This document shows positions 1,336-40,791 of a stretch of 41,541 bases of DNA, piece after piece. Positions within the stretch are counted from its first letter, which is position 1. Every line of letters begins with the position of its first letter. The notes beneath the pieces were generated by a model, which did not search any database, was not told the origin of the DNA, and worked only from the letters and a program-made list of their open reading frames with translations. Both the position numbers and the translations under genes were made by a program. The DNA lies in the IMG/VR virus record IMGVR_UViG_3300045988_128501, one strand, 5' to 3'. The DNA is from a virus.

Positions 1336-1361
1336 AAAAGAGGCCCTCTGGGGCCTCTTTT
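1336..1361. terminator. Bidirectional intrinsic terminator
   Basis: AAAAGAGGCCC-tctg-GGGCCTCTTTT perfect hairpin with A/T runs on both sides. It overlaps the stop codon of the XRE gene. Confidence 0.8.
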
Positions 1362-1566
1362 ACTCTTTGTCCGGTTTGTCAAGCAGAGAACGCGGATCCA
1401 CGCCTAACACATCCGCGATAGCCAGCAGGTTTCTTGCGCTCATGTTGCCGGCATCGCTCGTTCCGAGCTCAACTCTGCGTATCTGCCGAATATTCACCCC
1501 GGAGAGATCGGCTAGCTTCATCTGGGTTAGTCCCCGCTCGATACGAGCTTCCTTCAAGGTGATCAT
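1360..1566 (-). CDS. XRE-family helix-turn-helix regulator (68 aa), last gene of cargo operon
   Basis: LTQMKLADLSGVNIRQIRRVELG is a classic HTH_3 pattern. ATGA overlap with the upstream ORF. Confidence 0.85.
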   Translation of the reverse strand: MITLKEARIERGLTQMKLADLSGVNIRQIRRVELGTSDAGNMSARNLLAIADVLGVDPRSLLDKPDKE

Positions 1567-1802
1567 TCGTAATCACCTTCCACGATGATCTCGTTGTCCC
1601 CGGAAAGTCGGAAAATTGCTATGAGGCTTCCTTTTCTGCCGACCACGACGAAGTCATCCAAGTACGGATCGTACTGGGCACCATCCTCCAGGGCCACCCC
1701 CTCGAACTCTCCGCCGGGGGCGAATTCCTCCGGATTGTTGGCGATCCATTCGTCGATCAGCATCTCCACGAGTCCCTGTCTGGGGTTGTAGTTGTCATTC
1801 AT
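1563..1802 (-). CDS. Hypothetical small, highly acidic protein (79 aa)
   Basis: AAGGAGGtaacctATG RBS. Overlaps both neighbours. D/E-rich. Confidence 0.7.
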   Translation of the reverse strand: MNDNYNPRQGLVEMLIDEWIANNPEEFAPGGEFEGVALEDGAQYDPYLDDFVVVGRKGSLIAIFRLSGDNEIIVEGDYE

Positions 1803-2163
1803 AGGTTACCTCCTTGTTTGCGTAGTCCCAATCCTGCGTCAGCGTATATGCGGGGAAATCCACCCCCTGGCAGATTACGATGCGCCCAAACATGGTGCGT
1901 CCCACGGTGGCCTCCATGATCTCCGCCTGCTCCCTTGTGATAGATCGCAGCCAGTGGAGTTTGGCCATCCGGTGAAGGTAAGACCAAAGTTCATCAGCTG
2001 CCTGCTCTTCCGTTAGAGGCTGCCCGGTGAGGATGTTTTTCGCTCCGCGCGCCAATTCAGCCTCATAGAACTGCTCTACCTTCATCCAGTCTGCCTTTAG
2101 GGCGTCAAGTACGTCAAGAATTTGGATTGTGTGCTTCCTACCCATTATCTCATGGATTCCCAT
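1795..2163 (-). CDS. Hypothetical protein (122 aa)
   Basis: GAAGGAGagagtaacATG RBS. Coupled to the downstream ORF. Confidence 0.7.
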   Translation of the reverse strand: MGIHEIMGRKHTIQILDVLDALKADWMKVEQFYEAELARGAKNILTGQPLTEEQAADELWSYLHRMAKLHWLRSITREQAEIMEATVGRTMFGRIVICQGVDFPAYTLTQDWDYANKEVTYE

Positions 2164-2182
2164 GTTACTCTCTCCTTCCCCT

Positions 2183-2482
2183 TCAAGCGGCGACGAACTC
2201 GCCGGTCATGTTGTCAACGTACCCGATCTTCTCGGTGCGCTTGCGGCTCCAAGCGTTGGTGTAGACGGCGACCTCAACATAGGTGCGGCTCTTGCCGGCC
2301 TTGTTCCAGTCATTCACGCGGACCTTGGTGTTCCAGTCGATGCCAGCGGCGACATCTTCGGCGGTGTTGACGGCCTTGGCCAGGGCCCAGGCGGCGCGCA
2401 GCGCGGTGCTCATGCTGACGTTGTTGGCGCGGCGGATGTTCCAGGCGTTGGTCATAATCTCGTGCATGTTGTACTTCTTCAT
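2183..2482 (-). CDS. Hypothetical protein (99 aa), first gene of cargo operon
   Basis: cAGGAGGaaagcgcaATG RBS, downstream of a consensus promoter. Confidence 0.7.
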   Translation of the reverse strand: MKKYNMHEIMTNAWNIRRANNVSMSTALRAAWALAKAVNTAEDVAAGIDWNTKVRVNDWNKAGKSRTYVEVAVYTNAWSRKRTEKIGYVDNMTGEFVAA

Positions 2483-2590: not shown

Positions 2591-2599
2591 CACTTGCAC

Positions 2600-2640
2600 A
2601 AAAAGAAAACCCCCGATCTGAGTGATATCTCAGTCGGGGG
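2600..2640 (-). terminator. Intrinsic terminator ending the late (lysis) operon
   Basis: On the minus strand CCCCCGACTGAG-atatca-CTCAGaTCGGGGG is followed by TTTTCTTTTT. Confidence 0.8.
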
Positions 2641-2647
2641 CTTTGTG

Positions 2648-2911
2648 TCAGGTTGTGTGTTTTACGCGGTCCTCCACCTCTGCCCGCTTGGCATCGTTGA
2701 ACCGGCCCAGGTCTCCTACCAAGTAACCGGTGATTCGGCGGATGCGCTGGAAAGGTACTCTCTCGAATACGGGTGTGATGCCGTACTCATCGGGGGTGCC
2801 TGTACTGCGGATGGAGATTTCCACGACCTTGCGGCCTTCTTCCTGCTCCATCATGGCGATGGCTGCCCGAACGATTTCCTCCGGGATGTTGTCCGGATTG
2901 TGGATGATCAT
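2648..2911 (-). CDS. Stand-alone NrdD-type glycyl-radical domain protein (87 aa)
   Basis: The C-terminus RIRRITGYLVGDLGRFNDAKRAEVEDRVKH matches the class III RNR pattern RxxGYLG..FNxGKxxExxxRVKH. The start ATG overlaps the endolysin stop (ATGA). Confidence 0.75.
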   Translation of the reverse strand: MIIHNPDNIPEEIVRAAIAMMEQEEGRKVVEISIRSTGTPDEYGITPVFERVPFQRIRRITGYLVGDLGRFNDAKRAEVEDRVKHTT

Positions 2912-3687
2912 TTGAGTAACCCCAGTCTGCCGAGAATAGCCATAACCTCGTTGCGCTTCATGTGGCGTACGGGGGAAGTGCCATCGGAGACGCCGGCCTC
3001 TTGGGCCTTCTCCCACCAACCTTCCTCCTTGGACCAGTCATCATCCGGCAGGGTCGCAGCATGGATCTCGGCCTTCTTTACCAGCTCGTAGGCCTGTTCG
3101 TTGGTCATCTCTGCCAGCAGTTTGTTGATATCCATATCCTCATCTTCTCCTTTCAGGCGAGCGTTCACGCGCTCTGCGATTTCACCATATTTCCCGAATA
3201 AGTAGTTCCCCGGACAACTTTTTCCCTTGTCCGTGGTGTACCGGTGGGGCACCATATTGCACACCGCCCAGTTTCCCGTGAAAGCCGGGCAATACTGCTT
3301 GCCTTCCTTCCAGATCAATTTCTTGATGCCATTTCGCTGGCAGATGTCCACGCAGAGGTCGATCAGGCTCTCAAAGGCGGCAGCCGTACACTCGTAGGGC
3401 TCTTTGTAGGCCTGGATACTGGATACCTCGATGGTGACCACCTCGTGGTCCACCCTGTGGGAGCAACACCAGGCACGGTTCTCTTCCAGGACATACTGCC
3501 CAATCCGTCCGTCGGGGCCGATGCCGTAATGACTGGAGGCTTCGGAGGTTTGGAATACCTGCCCACATCCCTCCACACTGCCAGGCCCGGCCATAGTGTG
3601 GATAGAGATGCCCTTGATCTTATCCTGTCTGGGCTTCGTGCAGTGGGGGGACAATTTCGTGTATGCAACTAGCTTACTATTACTCAC
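2908..3687 (-). CDS. N-acetylmuramoyl-L-alanine amidase endolysin (Amidase_2/PGRP type) with a C-terminal SLH-like putative wall-binding segment
   Basis: GISIHTMAG, HYGIGPDGRIGQYV and ENRAWC motifs. GTG start with AGGAGG. Directly follows the holin. Confidence 0.85.
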   Translation of the reverse strand: MSNSKLVAYTKLSPHCTKPRQDKIKGISIHTMAGPGSVEGCGQVFQTSEASSHYGIGPDGRIGQYVLEENRAWCCSHRVDHEVVTIEVSSIQAYKEPYECTAAAFESLIDLCVDICQRNGIKKLIWKEGKQYCPAFTGNWAVCNMVPHRYTTDKGKSCPGNYLFGKYGEIAERVNARLKGEDEDMDINKLLAEMTNEQAYELVKKAEIHAATLPDDDWSKEEGWWEKAQEAGVSDGTSPVRHMKRNEVMAILGRLGLLK

Positions 3688-3898
3688 CAGTACTCACCTC
3701 CTGTTTCACCTCCGGCAGCCCTGCCACGGATGTTAACAGCGACAGCACGCCAGCCAGCACAGCGGTAGAAACCACGGTAATCCAGTTGACATCCGACAGT
3801 ACCGCAGACGCCCCGATTGCCGCCACCGCAGCCTGTGCGCAGGTTTTGATGGCTCGGACACCTGCAGCGCGCCACCATGTTTTCCACTTTTCGCTCAT
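3680..3898 (-). CDS. Holin (phage r1t-like holin family)
   Basis: RAIKTCAQAAVAAIGA...VNW...LLTSVAGLPE resembles r1t-type holins. Two hydrophobic segments. Located upstream of the amidase. Confidence 0.8.
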   Translation of the reverse strand: MSEKWKTWWRAAGVRAIKTCAQAAVAAIGASAVLSDVNWITVVSTAVLAGVLSLLTSVAGLPEVKQEVSTGE

Positions 3899-20154: not shown

Positions 20155-21654
20155 TTAACCCCCCGACTTGGTCACCGTAACAGTGTAAGATTTGTTCGCG
20201 GTACCATTCGCTGCGGTCACCTTCACGATCAGGGTGTTTGCGCCTTCCTTCCAGGTAACTGCTCGGCCATTCACGACGGGAGCGGCTGCATCGTCGCTGG
20301 GCCCCTGGTTCGTGATTTCGATGGTCGCATTTGCGTCTGCCGGGATTGCCATGACCGTGTTGGTAGCGTTGGTGGTAGACGCGGTATAGGTAGTAGTACC
20401 GGCCGCAAATGCGGGAGACAGGGTCAGACCGCCAATGCGGAGGTCTGCCAGAGTTGCAACATCGGATGCATCAGGGGCGTCTACCTGCTGCACCTTCCAC
20501 ACAGCGGGCTGAATGGCGGAAATATCCAAGACGAAGAAAGCGTTGTTGTCCATGGGGAAGCCGTTTGCGTAGCCCTTGATCAGGTATACACGCTCATCCT
20601 CCAGGAACCGGTAGTGGTCGGAGTACTCAATCCGGCCGTCTCGGGCGGAGCCGATAGCAGCAAAGTACTTGTACCCCAAGCCCATGATCGCCTGTCCCTG
20701 CTCCACGGCGGGAGACTGGATTACAGTCATGGGATAAGGCATCACATCGTTGGCGTAAGTACCGTTGGGGGTCATCATAGTGGTAGCGGGCATGATCTTC
20801 TGGAAATAGTCCACAGGATTGACCACCAGGATCACGTCACGCACATTTCTGGCCTTGCCATTAGGATCCACTGCCATCAGGGAGAGCAGATTACCCACAG
20901 TAGCAGGGGACAAGTCGGACACGGCCACAGGAGCCTTGACAGGGTACACGCCGCCGGTCACAGTCACGTTGTCGCCGACCTGGCGATTCATGCCGATGGG
21001 CATCTCGTTGCCGTCGCCAGCCACAATACCGGCCTCCAGACCGTTGGCATATGCCTCGTACAAAACCTGCCGCACAAAGCTATCCAGCCATTCAGGGCCC
21101 AGATCCAGCATGGCCTTGCAGACCGGCATAAAGGCGGACAGCTTGAGCAGGCCGGTGTCCACTTCCTTAAATCCGGATGTCAGTTCCCGGACGATCTCAT
21201 CACACAGCTGGCCCCAGGCAGCTTCCTGGTAGCCGTTGGTGTTCATCATCATCCGGATCGCGCCCCGGGTGTTGGTGAACTGGATATGGGACAGCAGAGG
21301 ATGGGAAGTCTGGAGTTCATCGAACACTGCGTCGATGACGGTCTCAGGCATCACCACATCCAGGTTATTCAGAGCCTGGCGGGGATCCTTTTCCTTCATA
21401 GCGCCGATGAGCTTCTGATAGAAAACCTTCTCCTTACTGGTGAGCTGGCGCACACCCCGGGCGGTCAGGACGGAGGTGTCAAGCCCCTGCTTCATCTCCT
21501 CCACCTGCTCGGCAGCTCTCTGCTGCACATCGTCGCCGATGTTCTGAATCATCTCGTCAAAGGCGACCGAGAATTCATCGGTGTTGCCATCTTTGATGGC
21601 CTGCTGAATTTTGGCCCGGATCTCGTCCCGGGTCAGAGCGTCGTTGTTTCTCAT
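20155..21654 (-). CDS. HK97-fold major capsid protein with N-terminal delta/scaffold domain and C-terminal cadherin-like beta-sandwich domain
   Basis: Follows the ClpP-like protease with no separate scaffold gene. The C-terminal LADLRIGGLTLSPAFAAGTTTYTASTTNATNTV...YTVTVTK matches the cadherin-like/Ig-like pattern. Confidence 0.85.
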   Translation of the reverse strand: MRNNDALTRDEIRAKIQQAIKDGNTDEFSVAFDEMIQNIGDDVQQRAAEQVEEMKQGLDTSVLTARGVRQLTSKEKVFYQKLIGAMKEKDPRQALNNLDVVMPETVIDAVFDELQTSHPLLSHIQFTNTRGAIRMMMNTNGYQEAAWGQLCDEIVRELTSGFKEVDTGLLKLSAFMPVCKAMLDLGPEWLDSFVRQVLYEAYANGLEAGIVAGDGNEMPIGMNRQVGDNVTVTGGVYPVKAPVAVSDLSPATVGNLLSLMAVDPNGKARNVRDVILVVNPVDYFQKIMPATTMMTPNGTYANDVMPYPMTVIQSPAVEQGQAIMGLGYKYFAAIGSARDGRIEYSDHYRFLEDERVYLIKGYANGFPMDNNAFFVLDISAIQPAVWKVQQVDAPDASDVATLADLRIGGLTLSPAFAAGTTTYTASTTNATNTVMAIPADANATIEITNQGPSDDAAAPVVNGRAVTWKEGANTLIVKVTAANGTANKSYTVTVTKSGG

Positions 21655-39226: not shown

Positions 39227-39850
39227 ATGGAGAAGGGTGAAAGGATCAGATCAAGGCGAGAAGCATTGGGGATGACACAAACCGAGCTTGCGGATGCATT
39301 ATCCACGACAAAACAAAACATCTACAAATATGAAAACGGGATAATCTCAAATATTCCTTCCGACAAGATTGAAGCAATGGCTGAAATCCTAAAGACAACA
39401 CCAGCTTATCTTATGGGGTGGGAGGAAGAAACGGTACTACCACCCAATATAGAACCACTTGGATCCATGCAAAAAATCCCCCTTGTTGGTCAGATTGCCT
39501 GCGGAACCCCCATCTTAGCCGAACAAAATATAGAGGATTACGTTGACCTTCCGGGCCATATCAGGGCGGATTTCGCGTTGACCTGTAAAGGCGAGAGCAT
39601 GATTGGTGCAGGAATCCGCTCGGGAGATATTGTCTACATCCGAAAACAGGAGGAGGTGGAAAATGGACAGATCGCCGCTGTCATGGTAGGAGGTGACGAG
39701 GCAACACTAAAACGAGTCTATACCAAACCAGGGGTTGTCCAGCTGGTGGCGGAAAATCCAAATATAGCCCCAGCGGTTTTTATAGGCAAAGAGGCTGAAC
39801 AAATTCATATCATTGGACTGGCCGTAGCGTATACACATGTACTAGATTGA
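39227..39850 (+). CDS. CI/LexA-like repressor (XRE HTH + S24 autopeptidase domain)
   Basis: MTQTELADALSTTKQNIYKYENG, then GESMIGAGI (Ser) and ATLKRV (Lys). Confidence 0.88.
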   Translation: MEKGERIRSRREALGMTQTELADALSTTKQNIYKYENGIISNIPSDKIEAMAEILKTTPAYLMGWEEETVLPPNIEPLGSMQKIPLVGQIACGTPILAEQNIEDYVDLPGHIRADFALTCKGESMIGAGIRSGDIVYIRKQEEVENGQIAAVMVGGDEATLKRVYTKPGVVQLVAENPNIAPAVFIGKEAEQIHIIGLAVAYTHVLD

Positions 39851-39864
39851 TTGGAGGAACAACA

Positions 39865-40791
39865 ATGAAGAAAGAGAGAGCGATTCCCCTGATCCTTAGT
39901 GTCGCACTTGCGTTGTGTTTGGTTGGGTGTGGAGAGGATGATGGGTCGAACGAAGAAGTTGGGCAGGAAGAACCTCAGCAATCCAGTGTGGAGACCGAGC
40001 AAGCAAAAACGAACGACTTTCAGACCGGTACAACAGAGTATTATATTGATTCACTGTTTTTTGATGTTCCGACAACATGGACATTCAGGAACGCCTCCAA
40101 CGGATCTGCTTCTTATTTTTACCCGCCATCTGGAGATGGGCTCGATCTGATGATGGTGTCCACGGTTAATACAACTGGATCAATTTTAGATGATACAATC
40201 TTTTCTGAGTTTTTATCTGGCGTTGAGAGCGGTTCGGATTCGTATCAACTTATTACCAAGCAATATGGAACAAACGCACAAGGAAAAGATTTTGCATTCG
40301 TGTCATATCTATCACTGATCGAAGGATACAACATGCAATCGTATATATGCGGATTTGACTGTAGCTCTGGATATACGCTGTTTTCCTTTGCCGTCCGAAC
40401 TGACTCTCCATATGATTACTCTAATGATATATCCGCTATCTACGACTCTGTCCGTGAAGCGTCTAATTATAGCGATACCGCAGAAAGCAAAGAACCGGCT
40501 GCTTCCATGGGAGAACTCAACGCCTTAGAAAAGGCATTAAGCTACCTTGACTACACCGCCTTCTCTAGATCCGGGTTAATCGAGCAGCTTGAGTTTGAGG
40601 GGTTCTCTGCTGAGGAAGCCACTTATGGTGTGGACAACTGCGGTGCAGACTGGAACGAACAAGCCGCTAAAAAAGCGCAAAGCTACCTTGATTATTCGTC
40701 CTTTTCCAGACAGGGGCTAATTGACCAGCTCGTTTTCGAGGGATTCACCCAGGAACAGGCAGAATACGGTGTGTCTGCTGTCGGGTACTAA
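39865..40791 (+). CDS. ltp: Ltp-family surface lipoprotein (two C-terminal Ltp repeats); putative superinfection exclusion
   Basis: Lipobox LALCLVGC. Tandem repeats ALSYLDYTAFSRSGLIEQLEFEGFSAEEATYGV and AQSYLDYSSFSRQGLIDQLVFEGFTQEQAEYGV. Confidence 0.75.
   Translation: MKKERAIPLILSVALALCLVGCGEDDGSNEEVGQEEPQQSSVETEQAKTNDFQTGTTEYYIDSLFFDVPTTWTFRNASNGSASYFYPPSGDGLDLMMVSTVNTTGSILDDTIFSEFLSGVESGSDSYQLITKQYGTNAQGKDFAFVSYLSLIEGYNMQSYICGFDCSSGYTLFSFAVRTDSPYDYSNDISAIYDSVREASNYSDTAESKEPAASMGELNALEKALSYLDYTAFSRSGLIEQLEFEGFSAEEATYGVDNCGADWNEQAAKKAQSYLDYSSFSRQGLIDQLVFEGFTQEQAEYGVSAVGY

Follow-up and report, generated by a model that had tools for sequence, protein, structure and literature searches.

A phage-borne NrdD-type glycyl-radical segment as a candidate exchangeable part of class III ribonucleotide reductase

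Our results show that a small gene of IMGVR_UViG_3300045988_128501, an IMG/VR virus record of 41,541 nucleotides (this whole stretch is called the window below), encodes a free-standing version of the glycyl-radical end of NrdD, the anaerobic (class III) ribonucleotide reductase (RNR). The gene, here named mini-NrdD, lies directly behind the endolysin gene of a complete-looking temperate siphophage of 41.5 kb. We consider it probable that its product is an autonomous NrdD-type glycyl-radical module, which would be activated by the NrdG of the host and would insert into the host NrdD in trans. With slightly less confidence, we also propose that class III RNR is modular in many gut Clostridia, where the free loop would serve as a spare part, as the radical subunit of a split NrdD and as phage cargo. 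The gene and its parts are the following.

2648 to 2911, minus strand: mini-NrdD gene, 87 codons plus a TGA stop at 2648-2650
2762 to 2911, minus strand: N-terminal domain, residues 1-50, predicted beta-alpha-beta-beta (strands at 2-4, 29-36 and 43-49, helix at 11-25)
2651 to 2761, minus strand: NrdD-type glycyl-radical segment, residues 51-87, equivalent to the part of NrdD past its last zinc-ribbon cysteine
2714 to 2746, minus strand: glycine loop motif R56-IRRITGYLV-G66, defined by its invariance in the family and its alignment to Prevotella copri NrdD
2728 to 2726 (GGT), minus strand: codon of the predicted radical glycine, G62
2725 to 2723, minus strand: codon of Y63

The open reading frame (ORF) runs from an ATG at 2911-2909 to the stop codon at 2650-2648, and the translated product, MIIHNPDNIPEEIVRAAIAMMEQEEGRKVVEISIRSTGTPDEYGITPVFERVPFQRIRRITGYLVGDLGRFNDAKRAEVEDRVKHTT, contains no cysteine. 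An earlier note on this DNA, made from the letters alone, had the frame, its placement and the 87-residue length right; the C-terminus that it quoted stopped two residues early, the true end being ...RVKHTT.

As judged from the comparisons that follow, the likeness of the C-terminal part to NrdD is well above chance. The Pfam NRDD profile, the search on which the earlier note had staked its proposal, aligned residues 54-85 with its positions 533-562 of 562 (E 5.6e-7) and scored 29 bits, above the curated gathering score of 26.2. Moreover, NCBIfam PRK07111 matched residues 47-86 (E 3.7e-11), and residues 707-738 of P. copri NrdD were found in the structure database (PDB 8P23, E 6e-4). Of the last 38 residues, 28-30 (74-79%) are identical to those at the C-terminal end of four full-length Clostridial NrdDs, and 25 to those of a fifth, from locus L150. 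These matches uphold the earlier assignment to the C-terminal glycyl-radical segment of NrdD. The copied segment starts exactly past the last zinc-ribbon cysteine of the full-length enzymes, in which ...DRDPVCG..(8)..CPxCGR stands immediately before it. The product carries the NrdD radical motif, R-x-x-G-Y followed by a helix of the form N..K..E..R..H, as RIRRITGYLVG...FNDAKRAEVEDRVKH. Two other hallmarks of NrdD are missing, as had been claimed: 87 residues are too few for the ten-stranded alpha/beta barrel with its cysteine finger loop (~550-750 aa), and a protein without cysteines cannot hold the Cys4 zinc ribbon that precedes the glycine loop in NrdD (PF13597/TIGR02487/PRK07111). The NCBIfam equivalog models, with cut-offs of 326-764 bits, gave it 29-42 bits. 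The pyruvate formate-lyase (PFL)-type profile PF01228 (Gly_radical) did not match at E ≤ 1, and NrdD is the sole glycyl radical enzyme (GRE) to which similarity was seen. Mini-NrdD is a small conserved ORF that duplicates the glycine-loop end of its cognate GRE.

The mapped residues point in the same direction. G62 aligns with Gly711, the radical site of P. copri NrdD, Y63 with Tyr712 and R70 with Arg719, and the helix at 72-82 corresponds to residues 723-730. In the P. copri enzyme, Tyr712 hydrogen-bonds Glu581, bridging the substrate and the NxN flap, Arg719 hydrogen-bonds the flap, and the glycyl radical domain (GRD) behaves as a mobile unit able to exit the barrel (PMC11226230). A contact role for the conserved Y63 and R70 would be sensible only inside an NrdD barrel.

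The mini-NrdD family is very large, and the gene is under purifying selection. Across 13 orthologues, the ratio of nonsynonymous to synonymous substitutions (dN/dS) is 0.10 over the whole ORF at a dS of 0.69; since it is 0.08 in the N-domain and 0.11 in the C-terminal part, purifying selection covers the non-NrdD half too. In a database clustered at 90% identity, at least 7989 of 8000 scored candidates matched significantly (E ≤ 0.001), and the best 120 of these at least 7989 matches are all 87-90 aa long and 86-97% identical to mini-NrdD, which supports the start codon of the 87-residue product. The earlier note had considered that the gene might be a recent pseudogene fragment of nrdD without conservation as a small ORF; in view of the dN/dS of 0.10 and the fixed length of 87-90 aa we reject this. 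An exhaustive search of 50%-identity representatives returned 1836 proteins at E ≤ 1e-3, and the best 150 of them are nearly all 49-140 aa long (median 95), with no full-length NrdD among them. The family consensus reads ...PF(E/Q)RIRRITGYLVG(T/D)xxR(F/W)N(D/N)(A/G)KxxExxDRVKH. In 95 diverse members, otherwise only ~40-50% identical, R56, R58, R59, T61, G62, Y63, G66, N72, K75, E78, R82 and H85 are invariant; R70 is at least 90% conserved (alignment A4). Most of the 146 representatives examined for architecture carry one small N-domain (104, comprising the 'type A' of mini-NrdD and the commoner 'type B'), 18 are minimal, with at most 25 residues before the motif, and 24 are longer.

No curated family in Pfam, NCBIfam or PHROG is dedicated to these proteins. 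Note that NCBI and UniRef label members of 87-96 aa (P0100, P0287, P0322, P0350) 'anaerobic ribonucleoside-triphosphate reductase', a systematic over-annotation. It was also observed that 18 of the 146 representatives (P0280, P0302 and P0341 are examples) have two or more cysteines in a short tail past RVKH, such as ...HSVDCGCSLEEIA, ...HSVCC and ...HDLECSCCDF, as does the full-length L150 NrdD (...KHFMSECNCD). These tails bring to mind the redox cysteine pairs at the C-termini of class I and II RNRs; no such cysteines occur in the window protein.

The N-terminal domain is specific to the mini-NrdD family. AlphaFold2 (AF2), run with an alignment of 81 sequences, modelled it with a predicted local distance difference test (pLDDT) score of 72-82; from the single sequence, the model of the protein was poor (pLDDT 62). 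Over its full length, the domain can be aligned with the 'type B' N-domains that chromosomal family members carry. Foldseek found no neighbour for it in the PDB (best E 0.41), and in Pfam just TonB_C came up (E 0.15). Descent of this domain from NrdD was considered and rejected: its hidden Markov model (HMM) matches no full-length NrdD even at E ≤ 10 with the filters off.

Next to the protein itself, the linkage of its relatives to nrdD and nrdG carries the argument. Four bacterial loci (L129, L135, L143 and L157) and two 60-kb phage contigs (L051 and L062) have nrdD, mini-NrdD and nrdG in this order; in a further locus, L029, the small gene sits before a loop-less nrdD. The hosts of the split operons are Oscillospiraceae, Selenomonadales, Mailhella and a cultured isolate from mouse gut (L143). 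The split class III RNR loci lie as follows.

L129, 3631-6671
L135, 3588-6713
L143, 3480-6664
L157, 3665-6983
L051, 4085-6676
L062, 4091-6742
L029, 884-3161

In these loci nrdD stops shortly past ...CPxCGR, with an extra tail of 10-45 aa and no glycine loop, and a separate small ORF of 58-106 aa supplies the sole glycine loop of each nrdD-mini-nrdG operon. At the protein level the extra tails are conserved from one divergent locus to another, and they turn up in many independent database sequences; NrdD ends of this type were also seen in P0390, P0392, P0394, P0404, P0413 and P0486, and a search with the split-NrdD tail returned mostly short partial ORFs. We considered an intron or another RNA element as the cause of the apparent splits and rejected it, as Rfam gave just a cobalamin riboswitch across the seven split loci and the tails are conserved as protein. 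The split loci thus appear to encode genuine two-polypeptide enzymes and, if so, a free mini-NrdD can act in trans with an NrdD core.

Some features of individual split loci deserve mention. In L129, deletion of the segment between a duplicated 'GEGV' would give a canonical NrdD C-terminus. The NrdD tails of L129 and L135 (…EVLKKLKGYSKF… and …SVLKKVQGYSPD…) contain a K-x-G-Y-S stretch loosely like R-x-x-G-Y, which may be a relic loop or a coincidence. The cobalamin riboswitch (RF00174, 100.7 bits) occupies L135:3348-3526 in a Mailhella metagenome-assembled genome, where it lies directly upstream of the split nrdD; it points to B12-dependent repression of this class III RNR operon and marks the split operon as a regulated unit.

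Two further arrangements were found. In L150 (2330-5508), an intact nrdD with its own glycine loop is followed by a 94-aa mini-NrdD and then by nrdG, and the loop and helix of the small protein are identical to those of the adjacent NrdD at 33 of 40 positions, lineage-specific residues included. The small gene is thus a literal spare copy. A Crp-family gene lies ~1 kb downstream of this operon. In six genomes, the mini-NrdD gene stands 20-57 nt upstream of a same-strand rubrerythrin gene with a rubredoxin-like N-terminus, and four of these loci (L090, L109, L110 and L161) have a divergently transcribed Crp/Fnr-family regulator, so that the arrangement looks like an oxygen- or peroxide-stress operon. 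The mini-rubrerythrin loci are these.

L090, 3382-4176
L108, 6055-6832
L109, 6055-6966
L110, 6049-6828
L161, 6052-6967
L151, 5968-6737

SAM synthetase was the downstream neighbour twice (neighbours were surveyed with a crude greedy ORF caller, and the counts are approximate).

A pattern scan yielded at least 486 confirmed loci in IMG/VR and at least 598 in the GTDB species representatives. Nearly all hosts are Clostridia (Oscillospiraceae, Ruminococcus, Christensenellales), with a few Eggerthella, Mailhella, Erysipelotrichaceae and Selenomonadales. Among the 163 motif-bearing ORFs in 164 loci, five are full-length NrdDs, one is an NrdD truncated by the contig end and the others are small. The most abundant members, P0350 and P0372, are found in gut Ruminococcus as monocistronic chromosomal genes whose neighbourhoods are conserved and non-prophage; in the assembly collection, P0350 was seen in 2872 index blocks, on contigs of up to 3.08 Mb. 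INPHARED gave ten weak metagenomic matches and no cultured phage isolate with the gene. The description of the protein as a phage-encoded spare part needs a qualification: phages do bear it, and yet the family is no phage invention, its most abundant members being chromosomal.

On this basis we propose the following mechanism. Oxygen destroys GREs via chain cleavage at the radical glycine. The module would consist of a beta-alpha-beta-beta handle (residues 1-50), the glycine loop with G62 and the C-terminal helix of class III RNR. The host activase NrdG would recognise the invariant RIRRITGYLVG loop as it does in NrdD and abstract the C-alpha hydrogen of G62, and the radical-bearing loop would then enter, in trans, the barrel of a host NrdD without a loop of its own, whether through cleavage by O2, through non-activation or because none is encoded, as in the naturally split enzyme. 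Inside the barrel, G62 would exchange the radical with the finger-loop cysteine, with Y63 and R70 making the flap and substrate contacts of Tyr712 and Arg719 in P. copri NrdD. If activation by NrdG, docking to NrdD and rescue of activity follow this scheme, the phage would supply the one consumable, oxygen-suicidal part of the enzyme with which a strict anaerobe makes its deoxynucleoside triphosphates (dNTPs).

The spare-part concept itself is known; the enzyme class, the domain architecture and the connection to split enzymes are new. GrcA (YfiD) of Escherichia coli has been proposed to replace the O2-cleaved glycine loop of PFL in trans (PMC8683613, PMC13450708), and the validated spare parts are just YfiD and Y06I of phage T4, both for PFL (PMC8683613). 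According to the account of Wagner et al. 2001 given in PMC8683613, Y06I is a phage-encoded spare glycyl-radical protein that uses the host activase and rescues the host GRE. According to a 2021 JBC study (PMC8683613) and a June 2026 review, it is not known whether GREs other than PFL have spare parts. GrcA and mini-NrdD are alike in being small stand-alone glycine-loop ends without a catalytic part that depend on the activase of the parent enzyme, and both occur as monocistronic chromosomal genes linked to oxygen stress. However, GrcA is a PFL homologue and mini-NrdD an NrdD homologue, whose target would be ribonucleotide reduction; moreover, YfiD has a disordered N-terminal half and a structured C-terminal half, whereas the models predict a folded N-domain and a floppy glycine-loop part for mini-NrdD. 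Y06I is the direct precedent for a radical part carried by a phage, although it is PFL-type and belongs to a virulent phage of a facultative anaerobe, whereas mini-NrdD is NrdD-type and stands at the end of the lysis operon of a temperate siphophage of strict anaerobes. With the GRD of NrdD itself (residues 676-739 of P. copri NrdD, PDB 8P23; T4 NrdD, 1H79), mini-NrdD shares the glycine loop and the following helix; in mini-NrdD an unrelated beta-alpha-beta-beta domain replaces the zinc ribbon that makes up the first half of the GRD, and there is no covalent link to a barrel.

The split class II enzyme NrdJa/NrdJb of Pseudomonas aeruginosa (PMC4520616; PMC9669993) is the known precedent of an RNR with its C-terminal functional module on a polypeptide of its own. 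It resembles the operons in which a loop-less nrdD is followed by the small gene and nrdG, but it belongs to another RNR class, and its separated part consists of zinc-finger and IscU-like reduction modules and not of the radical site. We know of no phage-borne free copies of that class II module. The open-access full-text literature that was searched yielded neither an account of an autonomous glycyl radical protein of NrdD type nor one of a split NrdD. If our proposal is true, mini-NrdD would be the first spare part or trans-acting radical subunit for any GRE besides PFL, and the split loci the first two-polypeptide class III RNRs. The family offers testable spare-part candidates for an enzyme essential to strict anaerobes, the one that makes their DNA precursors. 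Confirmation would account for the recovery of DNA synthesis in oxygen-sensitive gut Clostridia that have been exposed to O2, reveal a split architecture of class III RNR, add phage auxiliary genes of a new type, with a consumable, cofactor-like polypeptide as their product, and correct thousands of database entries named 'anaerobic ribonucleoside-triphosphate reductase'.

In the window, the gene is part of the lysis cassette, whose other features are listed here.

3680 to 3898, minus strand: r1t-type holin, 72 aa, first gene of the lysis cassette, of which mini-NrdD is the last
2908 to 3687, minus strand: Amidase_2 endolysin, 259 aa (PF01510, 9e-17; phrog_7698 endolysin, 6e-37)
2908 to 2911, minus strand: ATGA overlap of the endolysin stop and the mini-NrdD start (TCAT in the window letters)
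2596 to 2644, minus strand: intrinsic terminator, stem at 2606-2644 plus a U-tract, directly past the mini-NrdD stop

The ATG of mini-NrdD overlaps the TGA of the 259-aa gene (3687 to 2908), as had been noticed before, and this ATGA junction, retained in 12 orthologous loci and in an Evtepia prophage, points to translational coupling. The terminator hairpin has a free energy of -29.4 kcal/mol (z = -5.2; 0 of 200 shuffles equally stable) and 11-nt inverted arms. Since the hairpin and its U-tract follow right after the stop codon, mini-NrdD closes the late/lysis transcription unit.

The Evtepia sp. (Oscillospiraceae) prophage carries a 92%-identical mini-NrdD with the same holin-amidase-mini order and the same 4-nt overlap, followed by a different small cassette and then by the host NUDIX, antiporter and rplS genes. 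This prophage copy and its flanks indicate strict anaerobes as the hosts of the phage and an integration site outside nrdD. The strict-anaerobe host that the earlier note had supposed is thereby corroborated, the relatives of the phage being prophages of Evtepia, a strict anaerobe. Carriage of the 3' end of a host nrdD on attP was considered and discarded on the same grounds, as the Evtepia prophage does not sit in nrdD and a cassette separates the small gene from the prophage end.

In the window's lineage, an Amidase_2 lysin precedes mini-NrdD in the 14 loci surveyed. Elsewhere, in lineages with mini-NrdDs only 45-78% identical, non-homologous lysins stand in its place: CHAP with peptidoglycan-binding domains (L034, L049, L056), NlpC/P60 with SH3 (L047) and a C39-like peptidase (L085); in the CHAP-lysin lineages a gap of ~130 nt comes before the small gene. 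Overall, about 20 of 147 upstream neighbours are lysin-like. Other phage positions are one or two genes from the terminase genes, with TerL among the -2, +2 or +3 neighbours in seven cases and TerS in two, beside integrases, or within nrdD-nrdG modules. The slot after the lysin is therefore recurrent and not universal: the gene does recur beside lysis genes in other lineages, as the survey suggested earlier was meant to find out, and most members are not adjacent to lysis genes. It is also where cargo genes (morons) usually sit, last in the late operon and close to the prophage end. The location that had seemed odd for a nucleotide-metabolism gene stands as the last one of its unit and loses part of its oddity, being a usual cargo slot that is occupied behind non-homologous lysins as well. 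Position and terminator fit a moron; yet the gene is conserved in the lineage, where a moron would vary, and ATGA-coupled, and a promoter of its own was not predicted.

Several points weigh against the proposed role of mini-NrdD as a radical module for the host NrdD. The chief weakness is the timing of expression. No sigma-70-like promoter was predicted directly upstream of the gene, and, given this and the ATGA coupling to the lysin gene, mini-NrdD is probably made late, when a boost of dNTP supply or a benefit for the lysogen would not be the obvious outcome. In about 140 of 160 surveyed loci there is no nrdD or nrdG within 6 kb, and the linkage there comes from the sequence of the protein alone. 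A zinc-ribbon stub left on NrdD after cleavage might hinder docking. Finally, AF2 with the alignment gave the isolated glycine-loop part a pLDDT of just 48-55, with a helix at 72-82; such low confidence would be expected of a loop that is ordered only within the barrel of its partner.

The split operons, the L150 copy and the rubrerythrin pairs give independent support to the earlier idea of a GrcA-like function. What they do not separate is repair after O2 damage from a role as a regular subunit. The corresponding alternative, which we regard as possible though rather doubtful, is that mini-NrdD is an auxiliary or replacement radical subunit for a naturally two-part host class III RNR, and hence an ordinary auxiliary metabolic gene that would increase or take over the supply of the limiting subunit. 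The chemistry would be the same as in the spare-part proposal, and just the state of the partner would differ. The nrdD-mini-nrdG operons of Oscillospiraceae, Selenomonadales, Mailhella, the mouse-gut isolate and the two phage contigs speak for it, as do the common tail-type NrdD ends; however, loop-bearing full-length NrdDs are common in the same clades (L131, L158, L159, L163, L150), and the association with rubrerythrin and Crp/Fnr indicates oxygen stress over simple stoichiometry.

Alternatively, the protein could be a decoy that titrates the host NrdG or blocks NrdD barrels, throttling dNTP synthesis of the host, for instance to arrest its replication late or to exclude competing phages. 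It does combine a complete activase recognition loop with the absence of a catalytic part, and its expression goes with that of the lysis genes, at a stage at which dNTP supply may count less. We nevertheless judge this role unlikely because its homologues are the sole glycine loop of chromosomal nrdD-nrdG operons, where an inhibitor would be lethal; moreover, the active-site contact residues of NrdD are conserved, beyond what recognition by NrdG involves, and monocistronic chromosomal copies outside prophages are abundant. A lysis-associated accessory protein, such as a regulator or partner of the endolysin that is NrdD-like by descent only, is less credible still. The ATGA coupling conserved in the lineage and the repeated placement behind CHAP, NlpC/P60 and C39-like lysins would suit it, but the most constrained part of the protein is the glycine loop, invariant across the family, most members lie away from lysis genes, many of them in the chromosome or in nrdDG operons, and no Pfam or PHROG match connects mini-NrdD to lysis functions. 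The least credible explanation is a non-functional remnant, either a decaying captured 3' fragment of nrdD or a duplicated host nrdD end carried on attP: the resemblance to NrdD is confined to the last ~35 residues and NCBI pipelines name such ORFs as NrdD, but selection acts on the whole ORF, non-NrdD N-domain included, the length is fixed in the 120 closest clusters, and the neighbours of the Evtepia prophage are NUDIX, antiporter and rplS genes and not nrdD, with another cassette between the small gene and the prophage end.

The window has further features outside the lysis cassette, among them the following.

18 to 1109: integrase
20155 to 21654: major capsid protein with a C-terminal Cadherin-like beta-sandwich decoration domain
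33066 to 32383, minus strand: dCTP deaminase (DCD)/dUTPase-like gene in the replication module (PF22769 DCD, 5e-36)
39227 to 39850: LexA-like S24/helix-turn-helix (HTH) repressor
39847 to 40791: Ltp-type surface lipoprotein with two PF07553 repeats, adjoining the repressor gene

Other genes of the window encode a G39P-type helicase loader, an HNH endonuclease, TerL, the portal, capsid and tail proteins, and the tail genes are followed by holin, amidase and mini-NrdD in that order. No Pfam match to NRDD or to an NrdG-type radical-SAM protein was found among 23 of the larger ORFs of the window, those of the replication module included, so the window lacks the loop-less nrdD and nrdG that accompany the small gene in L129, L135, L143, L157, L051 and L062. 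As no nrdD or nrdG was found and yet a DCD/dUTPase-like gene is present, and as the relatives reside in Evtepia, supply of the partner proteins by the host is plausible. The DCD/dUTPase-like gene of the replication module means that the phage manipulates nucleotide pools by a second route. The Ltp-type lipoprotein gene is likely a superinfection-exclusion gene.

Finally, the region next to mini-NrdD was inspected. Between its terminator and the convergent integrase gene lies a four-gene cassette (window 1360-2482, minus strand) that encodes proteins of 99, 122 and 79 aa and a 68-aa XRE-type HTH protein. The three larger proteins have no Pfam matches; the 99-aa protein gave a weak hint of the AcrIIA3 family (E 0.08). 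Within 2524-2598, an 18-bp palindrome occurs twice, as TAGGCTAATTTTAGCCTA at 2528-2545 and TGGGCTAATTTTAGCCCA at 2576-2593, 47 bp apart, and the pair brackets a near-consensus minus-strand promoter, TTGAAA-17-TATAAT (2552 to 2524); from their sequence, the palindromes look like operator sites for the cassette. In the Evtepia prophage, this slot is occupied by other genes, encoding a 64-aa protein and HTH proteins of 298 and 66 aa, and because different genes are carried there, the slot at 1360-2482 is a variable cargo region.

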